Origin: Capsulimonadaceae bacterium
GTDB taxonomy: Bacteria; Armatimonadota; Armatimonadia; Armatimonadales; Capsulimonadaceae
DNA length: 64,000 nt
Reading direction: 5' to 3'
Assembly (NCBI GenBank): GCA_965215505.1
Contig: OZ244065.1
Span: forward strand, 3,136,001 to 3,200,000
Shown: piece by piece, positions 3,911 through 26,722 of the stretch
How positions within the stretch are numbered: position 1 is the stretch's first letter
How the letters are laid out: the number at the start of each line of letters is the position of its first letter
Notes under the pieces: generated by a model
Databases searched by the model: none
Seen by the model: the letters and a program-made list of their open reading frames with translations, nothing else
What the model was told of the DNA's origin: nothing
Translations under genes and position numbers: made by a program

Positions 3911-6900
3911 CTACGGCCCGGCGCTGACGGCGGTGGCGCTCCACAGGTTGCCCGGCCCGTTGTCGGTGTAGGGGCCGTAGCCCGCCACGGTGAAGTTGAA
4001 CGAAGGGTCCAAGCCCCACAGCATCGCCCGATTGTCCGTGTTGCCCCAGAGCAGGTGCGAGAGGCCGTCGGGACCCGTCGCCAGGGCGGTGGCGCTCCAC
4101 AGGTTGTTCGCGCCGTTGTCCGTGTACGGCCCGTACCCGGCCAGCGTGAAGTTGAACGCACTGTCTACGTTCCAGAACATGGCCCGCCGGTCGGTGTTGC
4201 TCCACAGCAGGTGGGTCAGGTTGTCCGGCCCGACCGACGCGCCCGTGACGCTCCACTTGTTCTGGGGTGCGCCGTCCGTGTACGGCCCGTAGCCCGCCAG
4301 CGTGAAGTTAAAGGAGCTGTCCACGTCCCAGAGCATGACGCGCCCGTCGGCGTTGTTCCAAGCGATCCGGCTCTTGCCGTCCGGCCCGGTCGCAAGGGCC
4401 GCCGCCGACCAGAGGTTGCCGGAGTCGCCGCTGACGGAGGTGTCGGTATAGGGGCCGTAGCCTGCGAGGCTGAAGTTGAACGCGCTGTCCACGTTCCACA
4501 GCATGACGCGGTGGTCGGTGTTGTTCCACAGCAGATGCACGACGTTGTCCGGGCCGACCGAAACCGCCGTCGCGCTCCACTTGTTGTTCGCCGCCCCGTC
4601 GGTGTAGGGGCCGTAGCCGGCAAGGCTGAAGTTGCCGCTGTCGTCCACCGTCCACAGCATGACGCGCCCATCCGTGTTGTTCCACAGAAGGTGCGAAACG
4701 CCGTCCGCGCCCGTCGCCACCGCCGTCGCGTGCCAGACGTTCTGCGGCGCTCCGTCCGTGTACGGCCCGAAGCCGTTCAGCGTGAAGGAGCCGTCGCCGG
4801 CCACGCTCCACAACATGACGCGACCGTCACTGTTGTTCCACAGAAGGTGCGTGTGCGTGGGGGGCTGCACCGCCAGCGGAGCGGAGGCGGTGGCACCGCC
4901 GGAGACGGCCGAGACGGTGATCGTCGCGGACGCAGTCACCGGGCGCGTGGCGACGGCGAACGTGGCGCTCGTCCGCCCCGCCGCGACGGTGACGCTGGCC
5001 GGGAACGAGGCCACGTCGGAGTTGCTGCTGGACAGCCAGACGGTGACGCCGCCGGCCGGTGCGGGCGCGGACAGCGTGACGGTCCCGGTCGTGGCCCCGC
5101 CGCCGACAACCTGGGCAGGGGAGAGCGTCACCAAGGCGGGCGCGGGCTGGGTGTTCGGGATCAGCGAAGTGCGGACCAGGAAGACCTGGCCGCCGCTGCG
5201 AAAGGCAAGCCCGTCCGCGCCCCAGCGGATCAGGCTGCTGGGGCCGGCGTAGGGGGTCGCGGCGACGCCGGAGACAGTCAGTGAGCCAACCGGGAGGAAG
5301 GTGTTGGGGTCGAAGGCTTGGATGAGGGCCGTCCCGTCATTGCCAAAATTGGGACTGCTCACAAAGAAGACGCGGCCGTCGGCGACATCCGGCTGCACAT
5401 TCGCGTTGTAAGGTACACCGGAGAACGTGCCGACCAGGCTGGCCGCCTCGGGGTCTATGACCTTGCCGTTTGTGGAGAAGAGGAGGCCGCTGTCGAACTT
5501 GATTGCCCCGCCCGGCGCTCCTCCGGTCGGCACATCTCCGACGGCGACGCCGCTGCTGCTGACGTTCAGGCGCACCAAGTTGCCGTTCGAGCCGTAGAGG
5601 CGCGAGGGCGAGGCGGAGAACGCCAGTGTATCAATTTGGTAGGGGTACTGGCCGAGGGCGTTGGGACGCTGGACGCCGTTGTCATAGATGCCCAGGCCGA
5701 CCTGGCCCGGACCGAACACATAAATCCGCTCCGAAATGGCGACGGAGTTCACACTGCCGGGGAGGACCTGGATGTCATTCGGGTAGAAAGGCCCGTCAAA
5801 GCTCGCGTCGCCGCCGAGATGAAACAGCGGATCAGCCGAGTCCGTTGGCAGGTCCAGGTGACGGACGGCCGCCGCGCCGTTCAAGCCGACGAACAAAGAC
5901 TGCCCATTGTCGGAGAGGGCGAGTTTACCCGGCTCGCTGCCGATGAACACCGGGGCATCCATCACGCCCGTCAGTGGGTCGAACCCCACGATGCTGTTGC
6001 CGGGGCGGCCCCCTGGCACGACGGCACCGCTGGGGATGCTAGCATAGATCTTTGCGGTCACGCGGTCATAGATGAGGTCGTTGGAAGGAAGGTTCAGGCT
6101 GCGAACGCCGGCCGGGTAGCCAGGGTCACCAGCCGTATCCTGCACGGCCAGGGTCGCCTGACAACTCTGGGAACCATAGGCGGCGGTGACGCTGAAATTC
6201 GTGGTGGTAGTGACGGTGTTCGCGAGGAGCGGGAATGTCGCGGTCCGCGCGCCCGCCGGGACCGTGACGGAGGCGGGAACGGTGATCGCCTGCGTGTTAG
6301 TGGCGGAGAGAGTTACGGTGGCCCCGTCCGCCGGCGCGGACTGGGTCAGGGTGACGGTCCCTGTGGCCGCGGCCCCTGCGGCAAGGTTCGTCGCGCTGAG
6401 GGTCAGTGAGGCCAAGCCGGGAAAGCTGCGGGAGTCGATCAGGAAGAGCTGCCCACCACTGGTGCGGAACGCAAGCCCGTTCGCGCCGTAGGCGATGAGG
6501 TTGTCAGCCCTCCCGGAGACGCCCGAAAGGGTGAGCGCTCCCACGGGCCGGTAGGTGGCCGTGTCGTACTCGAAGATCTGGGCGGTGCTGCTGTTCCCCG
6601 TCGGGTCTCCGGTCAGGAAAAAGACGCGGCCGTTCGCGGCGTCGGAAGCAAGCGAAGTGCTGGAGCCGCCGAAGTAGGTCGTCGGGAACCCCGTGAAGCT
6701 GCCCAGGAGCGCTTGGGCGGTCGGATCAACCGCCTGCCCTGAGCTGCTGTAAATCAAACCGCCGTCGAACGAGAGGTCGGCGTTCGCCAGGTAGGCATAG
6801 GAACTCGTGTTGACGATGCCAGTTGCATTGGGGGTCATCGTGTAAAGGGTAGAGCCATAATCCCCGGTGCCGTACAGAACGCCTGTGGCGGGGTTAAACT

Positions 6901-7435
6901 TGATGAAGTAGGCACCGTCGTGGTCGGGAGTCGTGGTGGGTCTCTGGACGGCGTCGTCGAAGACCGCTACGCCGGCGATGTCCGGCGACACTCCCGTATA
7001 CCGGCGGGCGACCGCGACTGAGTGAGGGTTGCCGGGCAGGACGGCAAGGCCGGCGGCATTATAGTTGCCGAAAAACGAGGCACTCCCCAGGCTGAACTGC
7101 AAGCCCGCCGTCTGAGTCGGCAGGCTGACGCGGCGGACGGCGGCGGCACCATCCAGGCCGACATACAGGAACTGCCCGTCGTCCGAGACGGCCAGACGAT
7201 TCGGCTCGCTCCCGACGAACACCGAGGGGCCGACCGTGCCGGTGACCGGATCAACCGGCGTGATGCTGTTGCCGCCGACCCCGACGCTGCTGGGGACGCT
7301 GGCGTAGATCTTCGCGGTGTGCGCGTCATAAATGATGTCGTTCGTGACGAGTGAAACCTGGCGCACGTTCTGCGCCTGCGCTGTGGACAGCGGGGCGCAC
7401 GCCAGAGCGGCGAGGAGGGGGGCGATCTTTTTCAA
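3911..7435 (-). CDS. array A1: exported protein, 2x(beta-propeller + Ig-like) + six-repeat C-terminal module
   Basis: TTG start (KKIAPLLAALACAPLSTAQA signal peptide). Internal duplication NDL/IIYD..TAKIYAS...GSEP..LA.SD.GQ...G.DGLAFR. Module at 3911-4855. Start site uncertain. Confidence 0.85.
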   Translation of the reverse strand: MKKIAPLLAALACAPLSTAQAQNVRQVSLVTNDIIYDAHTAKIYASVPSSVGVGGNSITPVDPVTGTVGPSVFVGSEPNRLAVSDDGQFLYVGLDGAAAVRRVSLPTQTAGLQFSLGSASFFGNYNAAGLAVLPGNPHSVAVARRYTGVSPDIAGVAVFDDAVQRPTTTPDHDGAYFIKFNPATGVLYGTGDYGSTLYTMTPNATGIVNTSSYAYLANADLSFDGGLIYSSSGQAVDPTAQALLGSFTGFPTTYFGGSSTSLASDAANGRVFFLTGDPTGNSSTAQIFEYDTATYRPVGALTLSGVSGRADNLIAYGANGLAFRTSGGQLFLIDSRSFPGLASLTLSATNLAAGAAATGTVTLTQSAPADGATVTLSATNTQAITVPASVTVPAGARTATFPLLANTVTTTTNFSVTAAYGSQSCQATLAVQDTAGDPGYPAGVRSLNLPSNDLIYDRVTAKIYASIPSGAVVPGGRPGNSIVGFDPLTGVMDAPVFIGSEPGKLALSDNGQSLFVGLNGAAAVRHLDLPTDSADPLFHLGGDASFDGPFYPNDIQVLPGSVNSVAISERIYVFGPGQVGLGIYDNGVQRPNALGQYPYQIDTLAFSASPSRLYGSNGNLVRLNVSSSGVAVGDVPTGGAPGGAIKFDSGLLFSTNGKVIDPEAASLVGTFSGVPYNANVQPDVADGRVFFVSSPNFGNDGTALIQAFDPNTFLPVGSLTVSGVAATPYAGPSSLIRWGADGLAFRSGGQVFLVRTSLIPNTQPAPALVTLSPAQVVGGGATTGTVTLSAPAPAGGVTVWLSSSNSDVASFPASVTVAAGRTSATFAVATRPVTASATITVSAVSGGATASAPLAVQPPTHTHLLWNNSDGRVMLWSVAGDGSFTLNGFGPYTDGAPQNVWHATAVATGADGVSHLLWNNTDGRVMLWTVDDSGNFSLAGYGPYTDGAANNKWSATAVSVGPDNVVHLLWNNTDHRVMLWNVDSAFNFSLAGYGPYTDTSVSGDSGNLWSAAALATGPDGKSRIAWNNADGRVMLWDVDSSFNFTLAGYGPYTDGAPQNKWSVTGASVGPDNLTHLLWSNTDRRAMFWNVDSAFNFTLAGYGPYTDNGANNLWSATALATGPDGLSHLLWGNTDNRAMLWGLDPSFNFTVAGYGPYTDNGPGNLWSATAVSAGP

Positions 7436-7541
7436 GGGACGTTCTTTCGTTGGGAAGGGGCCGATGGGGCAGCCGACACGGGGCGACGGGCTCAGGGCGG
7501 GCGCGGCCACGACGGTCGCACCTCTCCTCCCTTTATCATAC

Positions 7542-7557
7542 AGCACGAACCATGCCA
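7542..7557 (-). promoter_or_regulatory. sigma54-type -24/-12 promoter for A1
   Basis: Minus strand TGGCATGGTTCGTGCT (GG-N10-GC). Confidence 0.6.
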
Positions 7558-7606
7558 AAACGGCCGGAACCAGGCAGAAATACGAACTAATTTACCGGCG
7601 CGGCCT

Positions 7607-10174
7607 CTACGGCCCCGCCGAGACGGCGGTGGCGGCCCACAGGTTGCCGGGGTCGAGGCTGACGAAATCGTCCGTGTACGGGCCGTAGCCGGCGACGGTG
7701 AAGTCGAACGCGGAGTCCACGCCCCACAGCATAGCCCGGTGGTCGGTGTTGTTCCACAGGATGCGGCTGACGTTGTCCGGGCCGGTCGCCAGGGCCTTCA
7801 CCGACCACAGGTTCTGCGGCGCGTCGTCGGTGTAGGGGCCGTAGCCCGCCAGCGTGAAGCTGAAATCGGCGGCGACGTTCCAGAACATGGCCCGGCGGTT
7901 CGAGTTCCCCCACAGGAGGTGCGTCCCATTGTCCGGGCCGACCGAAACCGCCGTGGCGTGCCAGTCGTTGCCGGGGTCGTAGGAATGGGGATCGGGGATG
8001 ACGGAGTCGTCGGTGTAGGGACCGTACCCGGCATAAGCCAGCAGGCTGAAGCCGCCGTCCACGTCCCAGAGCATGGCGCGGTGGTCGGCGTTGTTCCACA
8101 GGATGCGGCTGACGTTGTCCGGGCCGGTCGCAAGGGCCGTGGCCCTCCAGGGGTTGTAGGACTGGCCGCCTCCCACGCTGTCGTCGGTGTAGGGGCCGTA
8201 CCCGGCCAGCGTGAAGGAGGACTCGTCGGTGCCACCGTTCCAGAGCATGACGCGGTTGTCCGTGTTGTTCCACAGCAGGTGGACCGCGTTGTCCGGCCCG
8301 ACCGAGATCGCCGCCGCGCTCCACAGGTTCGTGGGGGAGCTGTTGACCGAGGTGTCGGTGTAGGGGCCGAAGTAGGCGGCGCCGCTGACGCCGCCCGCGT
8401 CGTCCACGGTCCAGACCATGACCCGGCCGTCGGTGTTGTTCCACAGGACGTAGCTGCGGCCGTCCGGCCCGGTCGCCAGAGCGGTGGCGCTCCACTTGTG
8501 TGTCTTCAGGGGGGCGTTGTCGGCGTAGGGGCCGAAGCCGTGGGGTGTGAAGGTGCCGTCGCCGGCCACGCTCCACAGCATGACGCGCCCGTCGGCGTTG
8601 TTCCAGAGCAGGTGCGTGTGACCGCCCGCGACTCCCGCCGCGCCCTCATAGGCCCCGATGGTGGGCGGGTCCGGGCGACCCTTGCCGTCCTTGTCGGTGG
8701 TGACGCCGCCGAGGAACACGCCCCCGCCGATGCAGGGCGAGCCGGCCCGGAGGTGCAGGTCGCCCCCGGCGGCATTGACGAACAGCGGGTCAGCATCGAT
8801 CACGATGCCGCCTGGCCTAATGTTCCCGCTCAAATAGCCGCCCTGTATGTCACAGCCGTCACAGGAGACGAGATCCACAGTCCGGGCGATCTCTCCGCCC
8901 CTGTCCCCATAGACGATACAGTCGGAGGGGCCGTGCCCATAAAGGCCGTTGTAAAAGCCGCCGCCGTCAGAGGCGGCGTTGCCGGTGATGGTGCAGCTCG
9001 TCACGGAGCCGCTCCCGTTGTAAACGCCGCCGCCGACGGCGGCCGTGTTGCCGCTGATCGTGCAGTCGCCGATCACGCCGACGCTGAAGACGCCGCCGCC
9101 GTTGTAAACGCCGCCGCCGCCGCCGCTGGCCGTGTTGCCGCTGATGGCGCAGCGCGTCACCGTGCCGATGCTGGAAACGCCGCCGCCGTTGCCGCCGGCC
9201 GTGTTGCCGCTGATCGTGCAGCCCGTCACCGTGCCCTCGTTGGTGAGGCCGCCGCCCGCCCCGCCGTTCGGGGAGACGCCGCTGGCCGTGTTCCCACTGA
9301 TCGTGCAGCCCGTCACCGTGCCGCTGTTGTCCATGCCGCCGCTGGAAGGCGCGGTGTTCTCGCTGATCGTGCAGCCCGTCACCGCGCCGCCGTGGAAGAC
9401 GCTGCCGCCGTTGAAGACGCCGCCGCCGCTGACGCCGGCGGTGTTGCCGCTGACCGTGCAGTGCGTCAGCGTGCCCGCGTCGTAGCTTGCAACGCCGCCG
9501 CCGGAGGTGGTGGCCGTGTTACCCGTGATCGTGCAGTCCGTCACCGCGTCGTAGCCGTAGACGCCGCCGCCGACACTGGCCGTGTTGCCGCTGACGGCAC
9601 AGCCCGTCAGCGTGCCCTCGTTGTAGACGCCGCCGCCGAGGTTTGCCGTGTTGCCGGAGATCGTGCAGTCCGTGAGTGTGCCGTAGTTGGCGACGCCGCC
9701 GCCGCCGGAGCCGGCGGACGTGCTGCCGGTAATCGCGCAGTGCGTCACCGTGCCGTAGTTGTAGATGCCGCCGCCGCTGTCCGTGGACTCGTAGCCGTTC
9801 CTGACGGTGAAGCCGCTGACCACCGCGCCCCGCTCGCCGTCCCGCAGGGTGAAGCCCCGGTGGTTGGCGGACGCCGAGCCGCCGCAGTCAATGATCGTCC
9901 GGGCCGGGTCGCCGCTGGCGGACCGGACCGTGAGGCTCTTGCCGCCGAAGTCAATGTCGCGGTTGCCCGGCCCGCCGTAGGTGCCGTCAGCCACGAGGAC
10001 CGTGTCGCCGCTGGACGCAGCGTTGACAGCGGCCTGGATGGTCGGGTAGCCGGCCGTCGGGACGTTGAGCGTGGCGGCATGGCCGGACGCGGCGAGGAAG
10101 GTCAGAGCCAGCAGGGCCAGGAGCGGCCCGCCGGGGGGGAGCAGACGGCGCGGGCGAGTGGTTTCAGGCGGCAT
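7607..10174 (-). CDS. array A2: exported right-handed parallel beta-helix protein + six-repeat module
   Basis: AAGGAG RBS and signal peptide (AASGHA/AT). YPTIQAAVNAA, many CTISGNTA..GGGV repeats, GDLHLRAGSPCIG...IGAYE. Module at 7607-8620. Confidence 0.87.
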   Translation of the reverse strand: MPPETTRPRRLLPPGGPLLALLALTFLAASGHAATLNVPTAGYPTIQAAVNAASSGDTVLVADGTYGGPGNRDIDFGGKSLTVRSASGDPARTIIDCGGSASANHRGFTLRDGERGAVVSGFTVRNGYESTDSGGGIYNYGTVTHCAITGSTSAGSGGGGVANYGTLTDCTISGNTANLGGGVYNEGTLTGCAVSGNTASVGGGVYGYDAVTDCTITGNTATTSGGGVASYDAGTLTHCTVSGNTAGVSGGGVFNGGSVFHGGAVTGCTISENTAPSSGGMDNSGTVTGCTISGNTASGVSPNGGAGGGLTNEGTVTGCTISGNTAGGNGGGVSSIGTVTRCAISGNTASGGGGGVYNGGGVFSVGVIGDCTISGNTAAVGGGVYNGSGSVTSCTITGNAASDGGGFYNGLYGHGPSDCIVYGDRGGEIARTVDLVSCDGCDIQGGYLSGNIRPGGIVIDADPLFVNAAGGDLHLRAGSPCIGGGVFLGGVTTDKDGKGRPDPPTIGAYEGAAGVAGGHTHLLWNNADGRVMLWSVAGDGTFTPHGFGPYADNAPLKTHKWSATALATGPDGRSYVLWNNTDGRVMVWTVDDAGGVSGAAYFGPYTDTSVNSSPTNLWSAAAISVGPDNAVHLLWNNTDNRVMLWNGGTDESSFTLAGYGPYTDDSVGGGQSYNPWRATALATGPDNVSRILWNNADHRAMLWDVDGGFSLLAYAGYGPYTDDSVIPDPHSYDPGNDWHATAVSVGPDNGTHLLWGNSNRRAMFWNVAADFSFTLAGYGPYTDDAPQNLWSVKALATGPDNVSRILWNNTDHRAMLWGVDSAFDFTVAGYGPYTDDFVSLDPGNLWAATAVSAGP

Positions 10175-10252
10175 GGCAGTAGACTCCTTGATCGGCGCGC
10201 GGGCGGCGCAGGGGGCTTGTCCCCGCTCCCCGCCATATTTACGGTCCCGCGT

Positions 10253-12316
10253 TCACGGCCCCGCCGAGACGGCGGTGGCGCTCCACAGGTCGCCCGGCCC
10301 GTTGTCGGTGTACGGGCCGTACCCCGAGACGGTGAAGTTGAACGCGCCGTCCATGCTCCACAGCATGGCCCTGTCGTCGGTGTTGCCCCACAGGATGCGG
10401 CTCAGGCCGTCCGGACCGGTCGCCACCGATGTGACGCTCCACAGGTTGTTCGCGCCGTTGTCATTGTACGGGCCGAAGCCCGCCAGCGTGAAGGCCCCCA
10501 GGCCGTCCAGGTTCCAAATCATCATCCGCCGGTCCGCGTTGCCCCAGACGAGGTGGATCTTCTCGTCCGAGCCGACCGAGACGGCCTGGGCGCTCCAGAC
10601 GTTCGCGGGCGAATTGCTGACGAAGCTGTCGGTGTACGGCCCGTAGCCCGTCACGCCGAACTGGAAGGCGGGGTTCACGTTCCAGAGCATGACGCGCCCG
10701 TCCACGTTGTTCCAGGCGATGTGCGATTCGTTGTCCGGCCCGGTGGCGAGGGCGACGGCGCTCCACAGGTTGCCGGGGCTGCCGTTGACGGAGTTGTCCG
10801 TGTACGGTCCGAATCCGGCCAGGGTGAAGCTGAAATCCTGGGCGACGTTCCACAGCATGACCCGGTGGTCGGTGTTGTTCCACAGCAGGTGGACCACGTT
10901 GTCCGGGCCGACCGAAACCGCCGTCGCGCTCCACTTGTTCTGGGGTGCCCCGTCCGTGTACGGCCCGTAGCCCGCGTAGGTGAAGCCGCCGCTGTCGTCC
11001 ACGGTCCAGAGCATGACGCGCCCGTCCGTGTTGTTCCACAGCAGGTGCGAGAGGCCGTCCGCGCCGGTCGCCACCGCCGTCGCGTGCCAGACGTTCTGCG
11101 GCGCTCCGTCCGTGTACGGCCCGAAGCCGTTCAGCGTGAAGGAGCCGTCGCCGGCCACGCTCCACAGCATGACCCTGCCGTCCGTGTTGTTCCACAGAAG
11201 GTGCGTATGTGGGGGCAGGACCGTGTGCGTCACATGGCCGTCGGCATAGGCGGTCGTCGGGGAGCCGTCGGCATAGGGCGGCGTGTCCTGGAAGAGTACA
11301 GTGGTAGCCGGGTCAGTGATGGAGGCGAGGCTGACGCCGCTGAGGGCGGCGTTCGGGACAAACGGCTGGCCGCGCGTGTTGGAGAGAGGTTTGAGGCTTC
11401 TCGTATATGGTGCGAGGGCTGCCTGGAACTCCGACACGTTCCCCATCGGCGGGTAGACCTCATCATAGTCCTGAGTGTACTGCACGATGGCGATAAAGAG
11501 TTGTTTCGCGCGGCTCGTCGTGGTGACGTTCGGGTCGCCGAACTCGATGCCGCCGCGTTCCAGGTGGCCGTCCGCATAGGCGATTGTGGGAGCGCCGTCT
11601 ACATAGGGGGCGGTGTCTTGGATGAGGATTGTATGGATCGGGTCGGGGACGGCGCTGAGGAAGACGCCGCTGAGGGCGGCATTAGGGACGAACGGCTGGC
11701 CCGTAGGCGAGTAGAAGATGCGGTGACTGTGAGTGAAAGGATAGACTGCGGTTTGTAGTTCATCCAGCGTGTGCATCGGCGGATATGTCTCGTCGGCATC
11801 CTCCGTGTACTCGATTATGGCAATCGCCACGGCCTTCTCCCGCTCGGTGATGATGGCCGTCGCGTCGCCGTACTCGACGCCGCCGTGTTCCACATGACCG
11901 TCCAGGAACACGACCGTGGCCTGGCCGTCCCCATGCGGCGCGGAGTCGCGGACCACCTCGATGACATCCACATCGGTCGTGTAGGGCGGATACGTTCCTC
12001 GGCTGAGGGCGGCGTTGGGCGTGTAGGGCAGGCCGGTATCCGGGCAGCGGAATACGGAGGCATCCCCGACATACGGCATCAGCGCCGCCTGGAACTCCTG
12101 CGCGTTCCCCATTGGCGGGAAGTTCTCGTCGTTGTCCTGGGCATACCGGGTGAAGGCCGCTTGGAGCCGGTGCAGATTGGCCGCGCAGGCGGCGGTGGTG
12201 TCCGCCCCCGATGCCATGCGACGGGCCGTGCCGAGCCACTGCCCGATCACCAGGAAGGCCAGGAGGCCCAGCCCCAGAAGAACGGCCCCCTCGGCCAGGA
12301 ATGACGGTTTACGCAT
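10253..12316 (-). CDS. array A3: DUF1559/H-X9-DG-like (pilin-like) protein + six-repeat module
   Basis: ATG at 12316 after GGAAGGGA. N-terminal hydrophobic helix, CAANL..L..A..RYAQDNDENFP, three units ending FLDGHV/YADGHL/YADGHV. Module at 10253-11209. Confidence 0.8.
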   Translation of the reverse strand: MRKPSFLAEGAVLLGLGLLAFLVIGQWLGTARRMASGADTTAACAANLHRLQAAFTRYAQDNDENFPPMGNAQEFQAALMPYVGDASVFRCPDTGLPYTPNAALSRGTYPPYTTDVDVIEVVRDSAPHGDGQATVVFLDGHVEHGGVEYGDATAIITEREKAVAIAIIEYTEDADETYPPMHTLDELQTAVYPFTHSHRIFYSPTGQPFVPNAALSGVFLSAVPDPIHTILIQDTAPYVDGAPTIAYADGHLERGGIEFGDPNVTTTSRAKQLFIAIVQYTQDYDEVYPPMGNVSEFQAALAPYTRSLKPLSNTRGQPFVPNAALSGVSLASITDPATTVLFQDTPPYADGSPTTAYADGHVTHTVLPPHTHLLWNNTDGRVMLWSVAGDGSFTLNGFGPYTDGAPQNVWHATAVATGADGLSHLLWNNTDGRVMLWTVDDSGGFTYAGYGPYTDGAPQNKWSATAVSVGPDNVVHLLWNNTDHRVMLWNVAQDFSFTLAGFGPYTDNSVNGSPGNLWSAVALATGPDNESHIAWNNVDGRVMLWNVNPAFQFGVTGYGPYTDSFVSNSPANVWSAQAVSVGSDEKIHLVWGNADRRMMIWNLDGLGAFTLAGFGPYNDNGANNLWSVTSVATGPDGLSRILWGNTDDRAMLWSMDGAFNFTVSGYGPYTDNGPGDLWSATAVSAGP

Positions 12317-12358
12317 TGTGCTTCCCTTCCGCGTCCGATCTCCGAACGTGGTGAGGGC

Positions 12359-16494: not shown

Positions 16495-16499
16495 TCCCC

Positions 16500-16528
16500 A
16501 TTATAACACAGGCCGCCCGCCATGGCAA
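16500..16528 (-). promoter_or_regulatory. sigma70-type promoter for A5 (probably leaderless)
   Basis: TTGCCA-17-TATAAT with TG. Only 5 nt separate the -10 from the ATG. Confidence 0.7.
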
Positions 16529-16581
16529 ACGCCCGGTTTCCCGCTCCCGCCCCCGCCCCCGCCGATGCTCCCGCGCCCCGT

Positions 16582-18281: not shown

Positions 18282-18310
18282 ATTATAACACGGACGGGCG
18301 AACGGCGCAA
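18282..18310 (-). promoter_or_regulatory. sigma70-type promoter for A6
   Basis: TTGCGC-17-TATAAT with TG. Confidence 0.7.
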
Positions 18311-18324
18311 GGAAGCCGGACGAC

Positions 18325-18353
18325 AAAAACGGGCGCGGCCTCTGCCGCGCCCG
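18325..18353 (-). terminator. shared array terminator after A7
   Basis: AAAAACGGGCGCGGC-ctct-GCCGCGCCCG. Confidence 0.75.
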
Positions 18354-18375
18354 CTCCGACCCTTCCGCGCCTGGT

Positions 18376-21300
18376 TCACGGCCCGGCGGAAACTGCGGTG
18401 ACGCTCCACTGGTTCTGGTCAGCGTTATCGGTGTACGGCCCGTAGCCCGCCACGGTGAAGTTGAACGCCGAGTCCACGCCCCAGAGCATGGCCCGGTAGT
18501 CCGTGTTGGCCCACAGCAGGTGGTTCAGGCCGTCCGGCCCCGTCGCAAGGGCCGCGGCCGACCACAGGTTGCCGGGCGCGTTGTCGGTGTAGGGGCCGTA
18601 CCCGGCCAGCGTGAAGCCGAAGGAGCTGTCCACGTTCCAGAGCATCGCGCGCCGGTCGGTGTTGCTCCACAGCAGGTGCGTCACGTTGTCCGGCCCGACC
18701 GAAACCGCCGTGGCGCTCCACTTGTTCTGCGCCGCCCCGTCGGTGTACGGCCCGTAGCCGGCCAGGGTGAAGCTGAAGTCCGGGGCCACGTCCCAGAGCA
18801 TGACGCGCCCGTCGGTGTTGTTCCAGGCGATCCGGCTGACGTTGTCCGGCCCGGTGGCAACCGCCGCCGCCGACCAGAGGTTGTTCGCGCCGTTGTCGGT
18901 GTACGGCCCGAACCCGGCCAGGGTGAAGTTAAAGGACGGGTCCACGTTCCAGAGCATGACGCGCCCGTCGGTGTTGTTCCACAGCAGGTGCATCACGTTG
19001 TCCGGCCCGACCGAGACGGCCGTGGCGCTCCATTTGTTCTGCGCCGCCCCGTCGGTGTACGGCCCGTAGCCGGCCAGGGTGAAGCTGCCGGCGTCGTTCA
19101 CGGTCCAGAGCATGACGCGCCCGTCCGTGTTGTTCCACAAGAGGTGCGAAACGCCGTCGCCCCCCGTCGCGACGGCCGTGGCGCTCCACTTGTTCTGCGA
19201 GGCACCGTCGGTGTACGGCCCGAAGCCGTTGAGCGTGAAGGAGCCGCCGGGGGCGACGCTCCAGAGCATGACGCGCCCGTCGCCGTTGTTCCACAGAAGG
19301 TGCGTGTGTGTGACGCCCCCCTGGATGGTGAGGGACAGGGCGGCGGAGGTGCCGCCGCCGGGGCCTGGGTTCACGACGGTCACGGGGTACACGCCGACAG
19401 GAAGGAAGACGGACGACGGCAGGTAGAAAGTGAGCTGCGTCCTGTCGTCGCTGAGGCTCTCCGGGGAGAACACATGGCTGCCGAGGTGGATGACCGAGTG
19501 GTGCATGAAGTTGCCGCCGGTGAGCGTCACGGAGGAGCTGCTCCGGATGGGCTGCATGCTGCTCGGGCTGATGCCGGTGAGGACCGGCACGGGGTAGGGG
19601 CCGTCGGTGATGGCTTGGGTGGTGCCGGCCGTGCCGCCGCCGGGGGCGCTGTTGGTCACGCTGACGGTGACGAGGCCCGGCGCAGCCGCGTCCGGGCCGG
19701 AGGCGATCAGGCTGTAGCCGGAAATGAAGGCCGTGACCCGCGTCGGCGAAACATAGGTCGTGCTGAAGTTGAAGCCGCCCCAGTTGACGATGGTGCTGGG
19801 CGTGAACCCCGTGCCGTTGACGGTCAGGGTGAAGCCGGGGAGTCCGTCGGCGACAAGCGAGGGCGGGCTGATGCTCGTGATGGTGGGCGCTGGGTTGACG
19901 ACCGTGAGGGTCGGCTGGGGGGTACTCTGCGCCGCCCCGCGCTGGCCGGGGGTGTAGGCGTAGAACGTCAGGATCGTCCCGACGGTCATCTGGGCGGCCG
20001 GGAGGCGCACGGTGATCCGCGTGTGGTCGGAGGACGCCGACAGCACGGTGAGAGGGGTCTGACCGGGGGCGACGTAGCCGAAGGCGATCTGCGTCTCCGG
20101 GTAGAGGCCCGTGCCGGCCAGGGTGAGGGTGGTATCCGGGCTGCCGGCGGGCAGGGAGGCGGGGCTGACTGAGGTGAGGGTCGGGACGGGGCGCACCGGC
20201 AGGACGACATACGGCCCGGACCCGGCCCGGCCGTCCGGGTTCGTGACGGTGACGGTGTGCGTCCCCGCCGTAAGGTCCGCAGACGGGATGTGGGCGATGA
20301 TCTGCGTCTCCGCGTAGACGGTCGCCGTCAGGGGGACGCCGTCATAGGTGACGACGGCCCCGACCTGGAACCCGGTCCCCGTGATGTCCACCGTCTGGTC
20401 CGGGTCGCCGGCGTCCGGCGGCTGGGGCTGGATGAGCTGGATCGTGGGGGCGGCGGGGGCGGCCCGCCCCGCCGGCGTGAGCAGTAAGGCGTGAAAGCCA
20501 GACGCGGGCTGCCCCGCCGGCTGCCCGATCGCGGCGATCTGCCCGACGTCATTGATGCCGACGGCCTCCCACAACTGGAATGCGCCCGCGTTGGGTGCCT
20601 GTATGTGCAGGTTGAGGTCGTACATCAGCCCGGCTTGTTCCAGGAAAGCGCCCGAAGGCCCGTTGGAAAGGTAGCTCGTGCCCACCAGGTCCTTGGACGA
20701 GTTCAGCGCGGTGGGGTAGGTGCTGAAGGCGGGGAAAGCGGAGTTGCTCAACGAGTAGGGGTCGAAGAACAGCCCGCCGAGGTCCACGGCGCTTATGGTC
20801 GTGTCCGCCGGGTTGAAGGCGGACACATTGGCACTCGCCCAGAAGACCTGGGCGCTTGCCGGCAGTTGTCCGTCCGTCAGCGCCCCCGGAGGCGGCACGG
20901 GCGAGTCCGTGCCGGTGCCGGAGACGAAGTGCCCCGCGGTGGCCCCCAGGTGATCGGGAACCCAGACGAAGGGGTTGACGGACACCGTCGGCGTGGAGAA
21001 GTTCCCGTAAATGTCACCGTGCGCGTCCGTGCGTAGGAGTACGAACCTGTACCCAGAGTACAGCCCGTTCGGGTCGAAACCGGGCGGGTCGCCCAGCGGA
21101 ATCGAGTTCTGCCCGTCGTAAAGAGTCAGCACCCCGTTCAGGAGGCCGATGACACGCCCCGAGTCGTCCAGCAGGGACGGCACCAGCAGGCCGAGGTCCT
21201 TCATCTGCGGGTTGGAAGGGGCGCCGCCCGTGCCGCCCGGCGTCCACAGGAAGCCATGCGGGGGGTCGATGTTGCGGTAGCCCTGGGGGGTCAGGGTGAG

Positions 21301-21837
21301 CGCGTCCGCCGTCCCGAGGACCTGTCCGTGGTTGTTGATGGCGACGGCGGTCGTGCCGATGTCGGCCTGGCTGTTCGCCACCAATGTTCCGAGGTCCTGG
21401 ATCGTGCCCGATCTGTCATCCGGCGCAGGCGTCCACAGGAAGGCGTGGCTGACGGACACTAACTGCCCGTCGCTGGAGAACGAAGCTCTCACCTCGGACT
21501 GCCCGGTGATCTGCCCCTGGTCGTTCATCGCCACGGCGGCCCGGAAACCCTCGGCCGGGTAGGAGCCGGCCGGCCGGTTCTCCGGCAACGCCCCGACGTC
21601 TATCATGCCTCCTTGCGGACTCCAAAAAAAGATGTGGCCCGGCAGGCTCAGGTTGGTGGTCGAGGGGGTGGCGCTGCCGAATACCTGACCCGCCTGGTTG
21701 ATCCCCTGGGGCTGGGCGGAACCGCCCGGCGTGAGGCTCCCGAGGTCTTGAAGGGTGTACTGCGGGGCGGCGGCAGCAACTGGAAGGGCGGCGAGGCAGC
21801 AGAGCGAGAGCGCGGCGAGCAGCCGGAGGGGGGACAT
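18376..21837 (-). CDS. array A7: exported HAF-repeat-like + 4 IPT/TIG-like domains + six-repeat module
   Basis: YTLQDLGSL, GINQAGQV, HAFLWTP..QDLGTL, AINNHGQV, then repeated P.P.LTSISP...TLTG..F. Module at 18376-19308. Confidence 0.85.
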   Translation of the reverse strand: MSPLRLLAALSLCCLAALPVAAAAPQYTLQDLGSLTPGGSAQPQGINQAGQVFGSATPSTTNLSLPGHIFFWSPQGGMIDVGALPENRPAGSYPAEGFRAAVAMNDQGQITGQSEVRASFSSDGQLVSVSHAFLWTPAPDDRSGTIQDLGTLVANSQADIGTTAVAINNHGQVLGTADALTLTPQGYRNIDPPHGFLWTPGGTGGAPSNPQMKDLGLLVPSLLDDSGRVIGLLNGVLTLYDGQNSIPLGDPPGFDPNGLYSGYRFVLLRTDAHGDIYGNFSTPTVSVNPFVWVPDHLGATAGHFVSGTGTDSPVPPPGALTDGQLPASAQVFWASANVSAFNPADTTISAVDLGGLFFDPYSLSNSAFPAFSTYPTALNSSKDLVGTSYLSNGPSGAFLEQAGLMYDLNLHIQAPNAGAFQLWEAVGINDVGQIAAIGQPAGQPASGFHALLLTPAGRAAPAAPTIQLIQPQPPDAGDPDQTVDITGTGFQVGAVVTYDGVPLTATVYAETQIIAHIPSADLTAGTHTVTVTNPDGRAGSGPYVVLPVRPVPTLTSVSPASLPAGSPDTTLTLAGTGLYPETQIAFGYVAPGQTPLTVLSASSDHTRITVRLPAAQMTVGTILTFYAYTPGQRGAAQSTPQPTLTVVNPAPTITSISPPSLVADGLPGFTLTVNGTGFTPSTIVNWGGFNFSTTYVSPTRVTAFISGYSLIASGPDAAAPGLVTVSVTNSAPGGGTAGTTQAITDGPYPVPVLTGISPSSMQPIRSSSSVTLTGGNFMHHSVIHLGSHVFSPESLSDDRTQLTFYLPSSVFLPVGVYPVTVVNPGPGGGTSAALSLTIQGGVTHTHLLWNNGDGRVMLWSVAPGGSFTLNGFGPYTDGASQNKWSATAVATGGDGVSHLLWNNTDGRVMLWTVNDAGSFTLAGYGPYTDGAAQNKWSATAVSVGPDNVMHLLWNNTDGRVMLWNVDPSFNFTLAGFGPYTDNGANNLWSAAAVATGPDNVSRIAWNNTDGRVMLWDVAPDFSFTLAGYGPYTDGAAQNKWSATAVSVGPDNVTHLLWSNTDRRAMLWNVDSSFGFTLAGYGPYTDNAPGNLWSAAALATGPDGLNHLLWANTDYRAMLWGVDSAFNFTVAGYGPYTDNADQNQWSVTAVSAGP

Positions 21838-21908
21838 CGTTTGATCCTTTCGGAACCGATCATTGCAAGAGAATCCCCTTGCATGGGCTTTCGGACCAGG
21901 GCACGGCC

Positions 21909-21937
21909 ATTATAGCACGGCAGGCAAGGGAGCGCAA
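21909..21937 (-). promoter_or_regulatory. sigma70-type promoter for A7
   Basis: TTGCGC-17-TATAAT with TG. Confidence 0.7.
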
Positions 21938-21953
21938 GCAAGCCGGACAACAG

Positions 21954-21982
21954 AAAACGGGCGCGGCATCTGCCGCGCCCGT
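21954..21982 (-). terminator. shared array terminator after A8
   Basis: AAAACGGGCGCGGC-atct-GCCGCGCCCGT. Confidence 0.75.
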
Positions 21983-22006
21983 CCGTGTCTGCCGCCGAAG
22001 AGGCGC

Positions 22007-24238
22007 CTACGGTCCGGCGCTGACGGCGGTGACGCTCCACAGGTTGCCCGGCCCGTTGTCCGTATAGGGGCCGTAGCCGGCCACCGTGAAGTCGAAGGCG
22101 CTGTCCATGCCCCACAGCATCGCCCGGTCGTCCGTGTTATTCCACAGGACATGGCTCAGGCCGTCCGGCCCGGTCGCGAGGGCGGCGGCTGTCCAAAGAT
22201 TCAGGGGAACACCGTCCGTGTAAGGGCCATAGCCGGCCAGCGTGAAGCCGTAGGAGGCGTCCACGTCCCAGAACATCGCGCGCTTGTCCGTGTTGCTCCA
22301 CAACAGGTGCGTGGTGTTGTCGGGGCCGACCGAGACGGCGACCGCCGACCACAGGTTCTGCGCCGCCCCGTCCGTGTACGGCCCATAGCCGGCGAGGCCG
22401 AAGCTGAAATCGGCGGGGACGTTCCAGAGCATGACGCGGTTGTCCGTGTTGTTCCAGACGATGCGGCTGACGTTGTCCGGGCCGGTCGCAAGCGCGGCGG
22501 CCGTCCAGAGGTTTTGGGGGGTGCCGTCGGTGTAGGGGCCATAGCCGGCCAGGGTGAAGGTGAAGTCCGGCGCGACGTTCCACAGCATGACCCGGTGGTC
22601 GGCGTTGGTCCACAGCAGATGCACGACGTTGTCCGGCCCGACCGAGACGGCCGTCGCGCTCCACTTGTTCTGCGGTGCCCCGTCCGTGTACGGCCCGTAG
22701 CCCGCCAGCGTGAAGGTGCCGGCGTCGTCCACGGTCCAGAGCATGATGCGCCCATCCGTGTTGTTCCATAGAAGATGGGAAGCGCCGTCCGGGCCGGTCG
22801 CGACGGCGGTGGCGCTCCACTTGTTCTGGGGTGCGCCGTCTGTATAGGGGCCGAAGCCGTTGAGCGTGAAGGAGCCGTCGGGGGCCACGCTCCACAGCAT
22901 GACGCGCCCGTCACTGTTGTTCCACAAGAGGTGCGTGTGGCCGGAGGCGGGCGGAACGCCCCCGTACTCATACGCGCCGATGTCGGGGGGGCCAACGCGG
23001 GCCGCGCCGCGCTGGTCCGTCGCGGGCGCACCGGTCGCCGTCCCGGCGTCGATGCAGGGCGTGCCGGGCAGCAAGGCCCTCGTCTGGGTCAGGCCGCCGT
23101 TGCCCTGCAAGGGGCCGAGGCCGGGGTCGGCGCTGAGGTTGCCGCCGCCGTCGGTGTAGAGCGGCCCGCTCGCCGGCCCGCGCCCCGGCCCGTAGACGGC
23201 GGACGCGGCGATGTCGCAGTGGCTGATTGTCAGGCTGTTGCCCGCACCGCCCTGGTTGAAGAAGATCTCCTCGCCGCCGCCGCCGGGAGCCGCATCGCCG
23301 GAAAAGATGTCGTTGGTGAGCGTAGTCGTGCCACGGATGATCGCGATCGCCCCGCCGCCGCCGTAGACGTCGTCGTTGGTGGTGGCCTGGTTGCCGGTGA
23401 AGGTGCAGTTGGTCACGGTCAGGGTGCCATCCACGTTGGAGATGGCACCGCCGCCGTCGGTGCCGGCGACGTTGCCCACGAGGGTGCAGTCGGTCAGGGT
23501 CAGGTGGACGCCGCCATTGCCGTTGTAGATGCCGCCGCCGGGGCCACCGGAGGCGTTCCCCGAGAGCGTGCAGCCGATCATCGTGACCGGGCCATAGGTG
23601 AACAGGCCGCCGCCGACCTGCGAGGCGGTGTTATTGGCGAAGGTACAGCGGATCGCGGTCAGGTGGCCGTCGTTGAGCATCCCACCGCCGCTGCTGGCCG
23701 TGTTGTTCTGGAAAACGCAGTCCGTCATCGTGAGCGTCCCGAAGCGGTTCAAGAGGCCGCCACCGATGCCGGCCGTGTTGTTCTGGAAGATCAGGTGGCT
23801 GATGGAGGAGGTGCCGTTGTCGCTGCCGATGATCAGCTCCTCTTGGTCCACGTTGGCCGGGGCGAGGCTGCCGTCCAGTACCACGCCCGCCGGGGGGCCT
23901 TGGATGGTCACGCCGGTGTTGGTGATGAGCGCGGAGGAAACCAGGATGGTGCGCCGGGCGGCGAACACGGCGGGATCAAAGGTGATGACGTCGCCGTCGC
24001 CGTCGGCGACGGAGGCGTCGGTGGCCGCGCGCAGCGACCCCGGCCCGCTGTCGGCGACCGTGGTGACGACGAGGGTGGCGGCGCGGCCCGCCCCGGCCAG
24101 GCCGGAGCAGAGGACGAGCATCGGCAGGAGGGTCCAGGCGGGGCACCGCCGGTGAAGGGGAGTGGCGGGGCGGGTGCCTTCGGGAGTGGCCCGAGAACCG
24201 CTCTGAGGAACGCCAGGGGAAGTGACTGGTGACAGCAT
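22007..24238 (-). CDS. array A8: paralog of A4 (beta-helix / choice-of-anchor-Q-like) + six-repeat module
   Basis: [28 protein letters not shown]; colinear with A4. Module at 22007-22939. Confidence 0.87.
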
Positions 24239-24322
24239 TGGGAAAGTCCTTTCGGGGCCGCCGGTGGCTCCCGCGCCGAGATCTGGGGTTCCGCCGTCGG
24301 GGCGGACCCTGGTAGTCTTGCC

Positions 24323-24338
24323 TGCATAAACCGTGCCA
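24323..24338 (-). promoter_or_regulatory. sigma54-type promoter for A8
   Basis: Minus strand TGGCACGGTTTATGCA. Confidence 0.7.
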
Positions 24339-24359
24339 AGTGCGGGCAAGAGGGCGGGG

Positions 24360-24375
24360 TGTGACAAGAGTCACA
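24360..24375. promoter_or_regulatory. perfect CRP box upstream of A8
   Basis: TGTGA-CAAGAG-TCACA. Confidence 0.62.
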
Positions 24376-24425
24376 GGTGGGGCTGGCAGCGCAGCAGGGG
24401 GCTGCGGGCAAGGGAGCCGGGCGAC

Positions 24426-24454
24426 AAAACGGGCGCGGCCTTCGCCGCGCCCGT
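24426..24454 (-). terminator. shared array terminator after A9
   Basis: AAAACGGGCGCGGC-cttc-GCCGCGCCCGT. Confidence 0.75.
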
Positions 24455-24481
24455 CCTTGCTCTTCGCTCCCTCAGAGGCCC

Positions 24482-26722
24482 TTACGGCCCGGCACTGACG
24501 GCAGTGGCGCTCCACAGGTTGTTCGCGCCGTTGTCGGTGTACGGGCCGTAGCCCGCCACGGTAAAGTCGAAAGCGTTGCTCACGCCCCATAGCATGGCCC
24601 GGTTGTCCGTGTTGGCCCACAGGATGTGCGAGAGGCCGTCCGGCCCCGTCGCCACGGCGGTGGCACTCCACAGGTTGCCGGGCGCGTCGTCGGTGTACGG
24701 CCCGTACCCGGCCAGCGTGAAGCTGAAGTCCGGGGCGACGTCCCAGAACATCGCCCGCCGGTCCGTGTTGCCCCACAAGAGGTGGGTCACATTGTCCGGC
24801 CCCGCCGAGACGCCCACCGCCGACCACTTGTTGGCCGACGGGTCGCCGCCCACGCTGCCGTCCGTGTACGGCCCGTAGCCCGCGACGCCCAGGACGTTCG
24901 ACCCGCCCGGCCCGCCCAGCGTCCACAGCATGACGCGGTTGTCGGTGTTGTTCCACACGACACGGCTCACGTTGTCCGGCCCGGTCGCGAGGGCGGTCGC
25001 CGACCAGACGTTGCCGGGGTCCGGGCTGACATAGTCGTCCGTGTACGGCCCGTAGCCGCTCAGGCCCAGGAGGTCCCCCTGGGCGTCCAGGTCCCAGAAC
25101 ATCATGCGTCGGTCCGTGTTGCTCCACAGCAGGTGCGTCAGGCCGTCAGGCCCGACCGAGATGCCGACGGCGCTCCACAGGTTGCCGGGGCTGCTGCTGA
25201 CATAAGTGTCCGTGTACGGGCCGTAGCCCGTGACGCTCAGGACAGCGCCCTGGGCGTCCAGGCTCCAGAGCATGACGCGGCGGTCCACGTTGTTCCAGAC
25301 GAGTCGGCTGGTGCCGTCGGGGGCGGCGGCGAGGGCGGTGGCGTGCCACTTGTTGTTCGGGTCGCTGCTGACGTAATCGTCGGTGTACGGGCCATAGCCG
25401 GCGTAGGTGAACGTGCCGTCCTGGGCGACGTTCCAGAGCATGACGCGCCCGTCGGCGTTGTTCCACAGCAGGTGCGTGGTCGAAGGCACAGGGATCTTGA
25501 AGACCGTGCCGGTGTTGTTGGCTCCGCCCGCTGCGGTTGTGCCATATAGAAAGCCATCACCAAGAACAAGCGGAGAGGACACAGGATTAGCACCATCGGT
25601 GACACCACTGAAGTCGTACAGGACTTGGAAGCCCGTGCCATCTGGATGCAAGCGGTAGACACTCCCGAGGCCGCTCGTGCCGCCGTTATTAGTCAACCCG
25701 CAAAGAGATCCATCGCCAAGGACAATGAGTGAGGCCGAAGGCTGCCCATCAGGAAAGGTGAGAAGTGTTTGGAAGCCCGTCCCATCCAGCTTGATTTTGA
25801 AAATGGTTCCGCAGCCACCTCTAGCGTTGGCGAGCTGGTTTGTGCCGTACAAGTAGCCATCCCCCGGAGCAAGTAGGGTGGAACTTGGGTAGGCCCCGTC
25901 AGTGTCACCACGAAAATTGTAAAGCGTTTGAAAGCCCGTGCCGTCTGGATGCAAGCGGTAAATACTGCCGAGGCCGTTCTGAAAACCGGAACTGGTTGTA
26001 CCATAGAGAAACCCATCACCAGGAGCGACCAGCGCGCTCTGTGGGCCGGAGCCGTCACCGCCGCTAAAATTATGCACCACTTGAAAGCCCGACCCATCTG
26101 GATGCAAGCGGTAGACGGTCCCGCCATTCAGGGCACCATTAAAATCGGCCGTGCTATAGAGAAAGCCATCCCCAGGGGCAATCAACGCAGCCTGTGGCCC
26201 ACTGCCATCTATCTCGATGCCGTTTTGCCTATCTTCAAATCTGTAGATCGTTTGGTAGCCGGTTCCGTCGAGTCTGATCCGGAAAATGGTTCCATAACCG
26301 AAGGCGGCACCGTGTTCGGTCGTGCCGTACAAGTAGCCATCGCCCGGAGCAAGTAAGGAAGCAGCCGGATTGGCTCCATCAGCGCCGGTTTGACCACTGC
26401 TGGTGAAAAAATAAAGTGTTTGAAAGGCGGACCCATCGGGCTTGACCTTGAAGACCGAGCCTACGCCGTATGCCCCGCCGTACTGAGTGGTGCCGTACAG
26501 AAAGCCGTCGCCAGGCGCAATCAGTGAACATGTGGGGCTAGCACCATCAGCGCTGAGGCCAGTGCTGGGATCAACTGCGAACGTGTGCAGGGTCGTCAGC
26601 GGCGGACTAGCGGCCTCTGCACCTATCGCAGAAACCATAACAAGGAGTAGGCAAAGCAAGGCCGTGTTCAGCGACCGAAGGAAGAGGATGGCGCTAATGC
26701 GTATGAGGAGACAGACGTGCAA
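24482..26722 (-). CDS. array A9: exported Gloeo_Verruco (TIGR03803-like) repeat protein + six-repeat module
   Basis: About seven repeats DGA.P.A.L.APGDG(F/Y)LYGTT..GG..G.G(T/S)(I/V)(F/Y)R...DG.GFQTL. Module at 24482-25480. TTG start uncertain. Confidence 0.85.
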   Translation of the reverse strand: MHVCLLIRISAILFLRSLNTALLCLLLVMVSAIGAEAASPPLTTLHTFAVDPSTGLSADGASPTCSLIAPGDGFLYGTTQYGGAYGVGSVFKVKPDGSAFQTLYFFTSSGQTGADGANPAASLLAPGDGYLYGTTEHGAAFGYGTIFRIRLDGTGYQTIYRFEDRQNGIEIDGSGPQAALIAPGDGFLYSTADFNGALNGGTVYRLHPDGSGFQVVHNFSGGDGSGPQSALVAPGDGFLYGTTSSGFQNGLGSIYRLHPDGTGFQTLYNFRGDTDGAYPSSTLLAPGDGYLYGTNQLANARGGCGTIFKIKLDGTGFQTLLTFPDGQPSASLIVLGDGSLCGLTNNGGTSGLGSVYRLHPDGTGFQVLYDFSGVTDGANPVSSPLVLGDGFLYGTTAAGGANNTGTVFKIPVPSTTHLLWNNADGRVMLWNVAQDGTFTYAGYGPYTDDYVSSDPNNKWHATALAAAPDGTSRLVWNNVDRRVMLWSLDAQGAVLSVTGYGPYTDTYVSSSPGNLWSAVGISVGPDGLTHLLWSNTDRRMMFWDLDAQGDLLGLSGYGPYTDDYVSPDPGNVWSATALATGPDNVSRVVWNNTDNRVMLWTLGGPGGSNVLGVAGYGPYTDGSVGGDPSANKWSAVGVSAGPDNVTHLLWGNTDRRAMFWDVAPDFSFTLAGYGPYTDDAPGNLWSATAVATGPDGLSHILWANTDNRAMLWGVSNAFDFTVAGYGPYTDNGANNLWSATAVSAGP

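Follow-up and report, generated by a model that had tools for sequence, protein, structure and literature searches.

The window analysed here is the whole of a 64,000-nucleotide stretch of DNA from a Capsulimonadaceae bacterium (contig OZ244065.1, positions 3,136,001–3,200,000), and it contains an array of nine co-oriented genes on the minus strand between positions 3911 and 26722, with short gaps between them, which we refer to as A1–A9 in order of ascending window coordinates. Each of the nine encoded proteins has, as judged by eye, a hydrophobic signal-like segment at the N-terminus (that of A3 resembles a membrane anchor), and each ends in a shared module of 310–337 amino acids (aa) composed of six repeats of about 52 aa (range 48–69 aa), which starts with HTHLLWN (TTHLLWN in A9) and finishes with W..TAVSAGP immediately before the stop codon. 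An initial annotation made from the sequence alone had presented these genes as a candidate undescribed surface-display system with a lineage-specific module in the place of an anchor. When the window was translated in all six frames and searched with a profile of the module, nine matches were returned (E-values 1.4e-189 to 2.7e-165), and beyond these nine there was nothing at E ≤ 1; the array of co-oriented genes with six-repeat, SAGP-ending tails is therefore real, and the occurrence of nine such modules is far beyond chance.

The coordinates given for the genes are those of the longest open reading frames (ORFs) except where stated. A1 (3911–7558, module 3911–4855) encodes an exported protein with a passenger made of two repeats of about 415 aa which are 41.5% identical to each other and belong to no known family; the database start lies at 7510, and a TTG codon at 7435 gives a signal peptide like that of the homologues. 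A2 (7607–10174, module 7607–8620) has a signal peptide and a right-handed β-helix passenger. A3 (10253–12316 from the database start, with the longest ORF reaching 12667; module 10253–11209) has an N-terminal hydrophobic anchor and three tandem repeats of about 105 aa without a family; these repeats are 36–54% identical and each ends in a D-G-H-V/L-E motif, which we take to resemble the H-X9-DG tail of prepilin-like proteins. A4 (12417–14573, with the longest ORF extending to 14630; module 12417–13349) combines a signal peptide with a β-helix and a choice-of-anchor Q domain (choice_anch_Q, 84.5 bits), and A5 (14827–16494, module 14827–15810) has a signal peptide and a passenger of about 190 aa without a family. 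A6 (16582–18186, module 16582–17514) carries a cyclophilin-type peptidyl-prolyl isomerase behind its signal peptide (Pro_isomerase, 120.5 bits), and A7 (18376–21837, module 18376–19308) carries HAF repeats and four CoaZ/TIG Ig-like domains (CoaZ_rpt_PGGG, 194 bits), again behind a signal peptide. A8 (22007–24367, module 22007–22939) is a paralogue of A4 with a β-helix and choice-of-anchor Q (76.3 bits), for which the start backed by homologues is an ATG at 24121. Finally, A9 (24482–26722, module 24482–25480) has a signal peptide and seven GloVer (Gloeo_Verruco) repeats (274 bits), and its module is the most divergent of the nine.

These Pfam and NCBIfam assignments bear out the passengers listed in the initial annotation, namely the β-helices of A2 (Beta_helix), A4 and A8, the cyclophilin of A6, the HAF protein A7 and the GloVer protein A9, and neither database returned a family for the passengers of A1, A3 and A5. 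Choice-of-anchor models match five of the nine passengers, including that of A2, for which choice_anch_Q scores below the curated cut-off. The reported absence of familiar anchors also held, as no Pfam or NCBIfam model for PEP-CTERM, the C-terminal domain (CTD) of type IX secretion systems (T9SS), LPXTG or autotransporters matched any of the nine proteins at E ≤ 0.01.

The array is probably more than one transcription unit, because terminator-like and promoter-like sites are found within it. A terminator-like hairpin on the minus strand at 3845–3876, with a 14-bp stem followed by a T run, closes the array after A1; a second lies between A8 and A7 (21955–21984, minus strand), and there is a promoter-like site ahead of A5 (16528–16500, minus strand). 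These internal sites weaken the case for a single nine-gene operon. Eight plus-strand terminator-like matches (at 4816, 10858, 13310, 15252, 17319, 18801, 18957 and 22900) were rejected, as they are nearly one sequence, lie inside the modules and correspond by eye to the reverse complement of the conserved stretch that encodes W-N-N-T-D-G-R-V, making them false positives of the scan. Very long ORFs which run antisense to or out of frame with the module genes (e.g. 7739–11758 on the plus strand, 15380–17083 on the minus strand and 18520–20172 on the plus strand) reach 1339 aa, have translations rich in Arg, Gly and Val, and were also dismissed as genes because they are by-products of the high G+C content (62–74%) and the repeats.

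The nine modules are clearly related, sharing 65–79% amino acid identity with the A6 module and 70–83% identity with one another at the DNA level. The ratio of non-synonymous to synonymous substitution rates (dN/dS, NG86 method) has a median of 0.33 over all 36 pairs of modules, with a range of 0.18–0.55, which shows the modules to be under constraint. The repeats within the module also resemble each other, with 54–69% identity between blades (as we call the repeats from here on; see below) at different positions and 68–79% when blades in equivalent positions of different genes are compared, and for 47 of the 54 blades the nearest blade is one in the same position. The module is rich in Trp, with 18 residues per 310.

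An AlphaFold2 model of the A6 module, produced from the alignment of the nine module sequences, has 24 strands in a 6 x 4 order with a mean pLDDT (predicted local distance difference test) of 82.5 and a predicted template modelling score (pTM) of 0.83, and the module is thus predicted to be a six-bladed β-propeller. In each repeat, three hairpins of 4–5 residues join the strands and there is one long loop with a helical turn, and the placement of this loop agrees with the expected crossing from strand D of one blade to strand A of the next. The register set by an alignment to RACK1 (see below) has the inner strand A at WSATAVS, followed by a G-P-D-G/N turn, strand B at HLLWNN with a T-D-G turn, strand C at RVMLW and strand D at FTLAGY, after which Y-G-P-Y-T-D and a variable stretch make up the D-to-A crossing. 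A Foldseek search of the PDB with the model returned at least 500 matches at E ≤ 0.001, and those among the matches listed, about 40, are propellers. These matches are generic, with template modelling (TM) scores of 0.45–0.63, and include 6-phosphogluconolactonase-type enzymes, G-beta, Seh1, LRP6 and two lectins. No close solved relative of the module was found either by Foldseek against the PDB or by PDB sequence searches.

At the sequence level, profile searches of the PDB returned the WD40 proteins RACK1, ERCC8, G-beta and IPI3 with E-values of 8e-4 to 7e-3, and a broader profile again returned RACK1, G-beta and IPI3 at 8e-4 to 3e-3. In a hidden Markov model (HMM) alignment to RACK1, ATAVAT, HLLWNN and RVMLW of the module fall on WD40 strands A, B and C, respectively. 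The likeness extends to the four strands per blade and to the succession of inner strand, x-G-P-D-G turn, strand B, T-D-G turn and W-ending strand C, which align to RACK1, ERCC8 and G-beta. However, the module has six blades and near-alike repeats of 52 aa, whereas WD40 propellers usually have seven blades; its ring would be closed by one C-terminal and three N-terminal strands rather than by the usual 3+1 arrangement; and the proteins that carry it are exported and not cytoplasmic.

This likeness raises the possibility that the propeller acts as a WD40-type platform for protein–protein contacts, through which the passengers would either come together in a lattice or a multi-enzyme complex or be docked on a single protein partner. 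WD40 scaffolds are the only solved structures with any similarity at the sequence level (E 8e-4 to 7e-3), and many WD40 propellers are also found amongst the Foldseek matches. We nevertheless regard this explanation as improbable, given that scaffolds with a single partner normally have divergent blades, whereas here the blades are 54–69% identical and the symmetry is family-wide. Furthermore, no conserved partner gene was found at L003, a Capsulimonadaceae locus with a solitary module gene, and WD40 Pfam models scored below their cut-offs on the modules and on the complete window proteins, the best being WD_LRWD1 with 18.4 bits against a cut-off of 30.7.

The register also offers an explanation for the SAGP ending. 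The chain of the module starts at strand B and ends with a strand A plus S-A-G-P, and this tetrapeptide corresponds to the opening four residues of the S-x-G-P-D turn that follows each of the other A strands, so that the ending is half of a hairpin seen after every inner strand. We counted C-termini, as well as the positions, blades and partner layouts reported below, over the 150 best of 1334 relatives of the module; of these 150, 57 end in S[ATVS][GA]P and 23 are GPY-like. All 15 of the SAGP-type relatives looked at (of the 57) begin directly at strand B, whereas the GPY-type ends after strand D and has a strand-A segment (W.A...VG.DG..) right before the first strand B in 20 of 23 cases. The two subtypes would appear to be one-strand circular permutations of the same propeller. 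In the SAGP type, the last strand A would complete the first blade in a one-strand 'velcro' closure of the ring, and the chain may stop at SAGP because the next strand has already been supplied by the N-terminus. SAGP is most simply seen as the truncated turn hairpin of the closing strand with a structural role, and we have rejected it as a sorting motif, as the permutation of a strand explains the ending and the sister subtype ends in GPY.

Although the module was first thought to be undescribed and specific to its lineage, neither description survives comparison with larger sets of proteins. Among 1.84 billion cluster representatives, the module profile matched 1334 at E ≤ 1e-3, of which 711 reach E ≤ 1e-10 and 316 reach E ≤ 1e-30. 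Annotation with PF07483 (W_rich_C), a Pfam family whose name refers to cyanobacteria, is present on relatives with modules 80% (P0156) and 75% (P0164) identical to those of the window. The module profile matches the PF07483-positive proteins P0035 (E 1.8e-82), P0089 (3.0e-51) and P0120 (2.7e-46), and in P0035 the PF07483 match at residues 488–532 falls inside the module span of 300–603. Because of this homology to proteins that pass the cut-off, over the same region, we consider that, by sequence, the module is a divergent member of this known but unstudied family. The window proteins themselves score 16.4–23.9 bits with PF07483 and all remain below the cut-off of 26.2 bits, with five of the nine listed at E ≤ 0.01 (A1 23.9, A4 22.5, A9 17.2 and A5 16.4 bits; when modules were scanned alone, A6 gave 18.0 and A9 21.8 bits). 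The cut-off is reached by 12 of the 69 relatives scanned, with a best score of 49.4 bits, and precomputed PF07483 annotation is present on 23 of the 120 homologues among the matches listed. NCBIfam has no model for the module, and P0089, the strongest PF07483 relative, had no match when its sequence was searched against the PDB.

The module and PF07483 share the same repeat signature, the C-terminal position and the richness in Trp, but the Pfam model has 105 positions (about two blades) and misses the six-bladed unit. The turns between strands A and B alternate between ATGPDG and SVGPDN types, and because of this alternation, which agrees with the length of the Pfam model, the sequences hint at a two-blade ancestor of the propeller. 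It should be noted that weak tblastn matches at three cyanobacterial loci (L013–L015) proved to be ordinary WD40 proteins and not members of the family. A feature search of the Atlas with the module gave leads of at most 0.93 to unnamed, FG-GAP or W_rich_C clusters, a low level of recognition which we have not used as evidence; those to FG-GAP/VCBS, the integrin-type propeller, were below 0.9 and no Pfam match to it was found on the module. Our search of the literature for W_rich_C/PF07483 found one paper, in which the family is listed in a table of protease architectures, and the passages that name it say nothing on function (PMC2605481); the family carries neither a function nor a structure. 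Searches on Armatimonadota β-propeller or secreted proteins, on choice-of-anchor domains and on type IX secretion in Armatimonadota returned nothing relevant by title or abstract.

Amongst the 150 relatives the module ends at the very last residue of the protein in 100 and within five residues of the C-terminus in 128. A passenger of more than 60 aa stands in front of it in 115 cases and there is little in front in 13; in ten the module is N-terminal with at least 200 aa behind it, and the remaining 12 have other layouts. Exactly six blade matches were found in 115 of the 150, with the rest mostly fragments or proteins in which one blade was missed, as well as giants with 15–18 blades. Blade-to-blade identity within the 115 six-bladed relatives has a median of 0.52. 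A hydrophobic N-terminal run was seen in 104 of the 116 relatives that begin with M and have over 60 aa ahead of the module. The placement of the module in the anchor slot is supported by its C-terminal position in 128 of the 150 best relatives, by the choice-of-anchor passengers and by the diversity of exported partners, whereas the ten N-terminal cases are at odds with a role as an obligate C-terminal sorting signal.

The same slot behind choice-of-anchor passengers is used by T9SS CTD, PEP-CTERM, LPXTG and S-layer homology (SLH) anchors, which are likewise attached to many unrelated proteins per genome. The module differs from all of these in being a propeller of 310 aa without a transmembrane helix and with a propeller strand for a tail, in matching none of their models, and in being sometimes N-terminal or repeated, and no processing enzyme or translocon was identified for it.

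The partners of the relatives include Beta_helix proteins, GDSL lipases, cyclophilins, matrixin, astacin, M23 peptidases, GH16, S8 subtilases and pro-kumamolisin, with further examples of α/β hydrolases, FG-GAP/VCBS, Ig-like, cadherin-like and LGFP domains. Fusions to GH16, M23, S8, S53-type, matrixin, astacin and GDSL lipase enzymes would be expected if the propeller were directed at a target outside the cell, much as a carbohydrate-binding module (CBM) is, so that hydrolases and adhesins, once secreted, would reach an external polymer or other organisms' surfaces instead of staying on the producer. The symmetric, Trp-rich nature of the propeller and its position N-terminal to the GH16 catalytic domain in P0144 fit this explanation as well. 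However, the substrates of the catalytic partners are chemically unrelated (protein, lipid, glucan and peptidoglycan), and many partners are not enzymes at all (β-helix, HAF, GloVer, TIG and cyclophilin), so one external substrate is less economical than a common site of residence. There is also no similarity to the carbohydrate-binding families in Pfam or NCBIfam, and we consider a target-directed role to be rather unlikely.

We favour instead, with a probability of about 45%, the reading that the tail is a portable, multivalent binding module for a common repeating ligand. This is suggested by its position in the anchor slot, the diverse chemistry of the passengers, the many copies per genome and a six-fold symmetry conserved across the family; blades so alike are typically seen in multivalent lectin-type propellers and not in scaffolds with a single partner. 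Each protein is built from an export signal at the N-terminus, a passenger specific to its gene and the shared, non-catalytic tail. The tail is predicted to be a highly symmetric, Trp-rich six-bladed propeller with a WD40-like register, in which the chain would start with strands B, C and D of one blade and the inner strand A of the same blade would come last. Enzymes and adhesin-like proteins that are otherwise unrelated would thereby be kept on a single repeating ligand, for which a polymer of the envelope or matrix of the producer itself is the most probable candidate. In this account the repeat architecture, the predicted fold, the family, the positional bias and the range of partners are results of the analysis, and the velcro closure, the role in binding, the ligand and the compartment are what we infer.

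Known β-propeller lectins include the tachylectin-2, AAL/SapL1, RSL and PLL/CV39L types, and the module resembles them in being a symmetric, aromatic-rich unit with near-identical blades, of the sort expected for multivalent binding of sugars, with CV39L (6gxs) and SapL1 (6trv) amongst its Foldseek matches. The PDB sequence and profile searches revealed no similarity to these lectins, though, and no binding-site residues can be transferred from them.

A number of observations weigh against the binding-module reading. The two lectins match the model with a TM-score of only 0.55, which is not above those of non-lectin propellers such as the lactonases, G-beta and Seh1 (0.45–0.63). The conserved H, T-D and W positions could be purely structural, as they are in the hydrogen-bond network of WD40 proteins. 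Insertions of 4–17 residues are present in the D–A loops of several blades in A2, A5 and A9 (these loops are enlarged in four of the six blades of A2, and a 17-residue insertion lies in blade 1 of A5), so the presumed binding face is not uniform. The symmetry of the blades may be maintained in part by gene conversion, as suggested by a mosaic module described below. A periplasmic location would suit the PpiA-like cyclophilin, the M23 peptidases of the relatives and the membrane-anchored A3 just as well as one at the surface. Finally, the assignment of the terminal strands to their blades is inferred.

Close relatives of the module genes occur in an Armatimonadales metagenome-assembled genome (MAG) with 11 loci, in a Capsulimonadaceae MAG and in another Armatimonadota MAG. 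Tandem arrays of three genes at L004 and two at L005 share the flanking genes of the window, two further paralogues (P0163 and P0008) apparently lie elsewhere on the window's own contig, and one contig of 3.5 Mb supplies 23 of the 120 homologues among the matches listed. In a tree of modules, the nine from the window are interspersed with those of other genomes, and the module paralogues are therefore old. The module of P0151, a near-identical orthologue of A8 with a passenger 99.2% identical to that of A8, is a mosaic in which the first half is A8-like (20 of 21 informative sites) and the second half A7-like (29 of 30), with a clean recombination breakpoint at about residue 150 between blades 3 and 4. 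Tracts of identical DNA are also shared by the modules of A1 and A3 (100 nt) and of A6 and A8 (73 nt), and the mosaic shows that sequence passes between the tails of neighbouring genes.

Directly upstream of the array and co-oriented with it is a gene for a predicted outer-membrane barrel of the FadL/PorV/TraF_2 kind (27191–28441, minus strand, 416 aa), and next to this, again co-oriented, is a gene for a putative lipoprotein of 251 aa with a lipobox-like LSGC signal (28471–29226, minus strand). The predicted structure of the barrel has a pLDDT of 82.8, and Foldseek matched it to FadL, TbuX, TodX and PorV chains of the type IX translocon (6h3i_F and 8gl6_F) with TM-scores of 0.41–0.52. Homologues of the barrel carry precomputed TraF_2 annotation (PF13729), the Atlas gives the same family, and near-full-length homologues are 58–98% identical.

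This neighbourhood allows an alternative in which the propeller is a cargo tag for a dedicated route of export to, or attachment at, the outer membrane. The barrel and lipoprotein would take up the cargo or retain it, on the model of PorV or PorP/SprF and the C-terminal domains borne by type IX secretion cargo. The tag would be recognised in an undescribed surface-display route of the Armatimonadota that runs through the conserved PorV/FadL-like barrel and the lipoprotein. The C-terminal bias (128/150), the many cargo-like paralogues per genome and the choice-of-anchor passengers are consistent with this, as are the type IX PorV chains found beside FadL, TbuX and TodX amongst the best structural matches of the barrel. 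In addition, barrel homologues (62–98% identity) apparently share contigs with module proteins, including short contigs of 10,767, 15,768, 33,221 and 55,722 nt, and the order of lipoprotein, barrel and module genes is kept at L005. Against this, the linked cases are all fairly close relatives in which gene order may be inherited rather than functional, and L003 has no barrel within 10 kb of its module gene. The barrel scores only 21.8 bits with the NCBIfam PorV family against a cut-off of 90, FadL-type transporters fit its fold equally well, and it is separated from A9 by about 470 bp (longest ORF) to 550 bp (database start). The module itself is N-terminal in 10 of the 150 relatives and occurs in giants with 15–18 blades, it exists with two permuted termini, and the window showed no further type IX component. 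We therefore give both the cargo-tag explanation and the display route it implies a slim chance, and treat the barrel as a lead rather than a demonstrated system. We know of no type IX-like cargo system in the Armatimonadota; if such a route did exist, it would handle dozens of cargo proteins per genome and be a functional analogue of type IX cargo handling.

Several other genes in the window may be recorded here. The AAA_21 ATPase gene at 59991–61205 and the DUF4276 gene at 61202–61861, both on the plus strand, match HEC-01A (504.8 bits) and HEC-01B (207.5 bits), respectively, which form a candidate pair for defence in PADLOC, and lie in a stretch of lower G+C content (0.587–0.588). The minus-strand gene at 57326–59629 encodes a protein of 767 aa with a Chlam_PMP-type repeat and C-terminal ankyrin repeats, and has a weak PADLOC match to PDC-M72A. 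A single plus-strand ORF of 654 aa at 39641–41605 joins extracytoplasmic function (ECF)-type sigma-70 regions 2 and 4 to a C-terminal AhpC/TSA-redoxin domain, and may represent either a redox sensor of fused sigma/anti-sigma-like type or a pair of genes that has been read as a single one. An HTH_3 protein (1025–1513, plus strand) followed by a PIN-domain protein (1702–2238, plus strand) looks like a toxin–antitoxin pair, and the minus-strand gene at 46887–49466 encodes a regulator-like protein of 859 aa with AAA_16, a MarR-like helix-turn-helix and many TPR repeats.

For PF07483, these results provide a concrete predicted fold, a six-blade unit size and two permuted closures. The current Pfam model recognises about one in five to six relatives (12/69 and 23/120), and with a rebuilt model many secreted proteins of metagenomes would gain an annotation. 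The exchange of tails between neighbouring genes matters for how families of this kind evolve. If the propeller does serve for retention, it would define which proteins make up the surface or envelope of a poorly studied phylum, allow cell-associated enzymes to be predicted by a simple rule from sequence and offer a new display scaffold.

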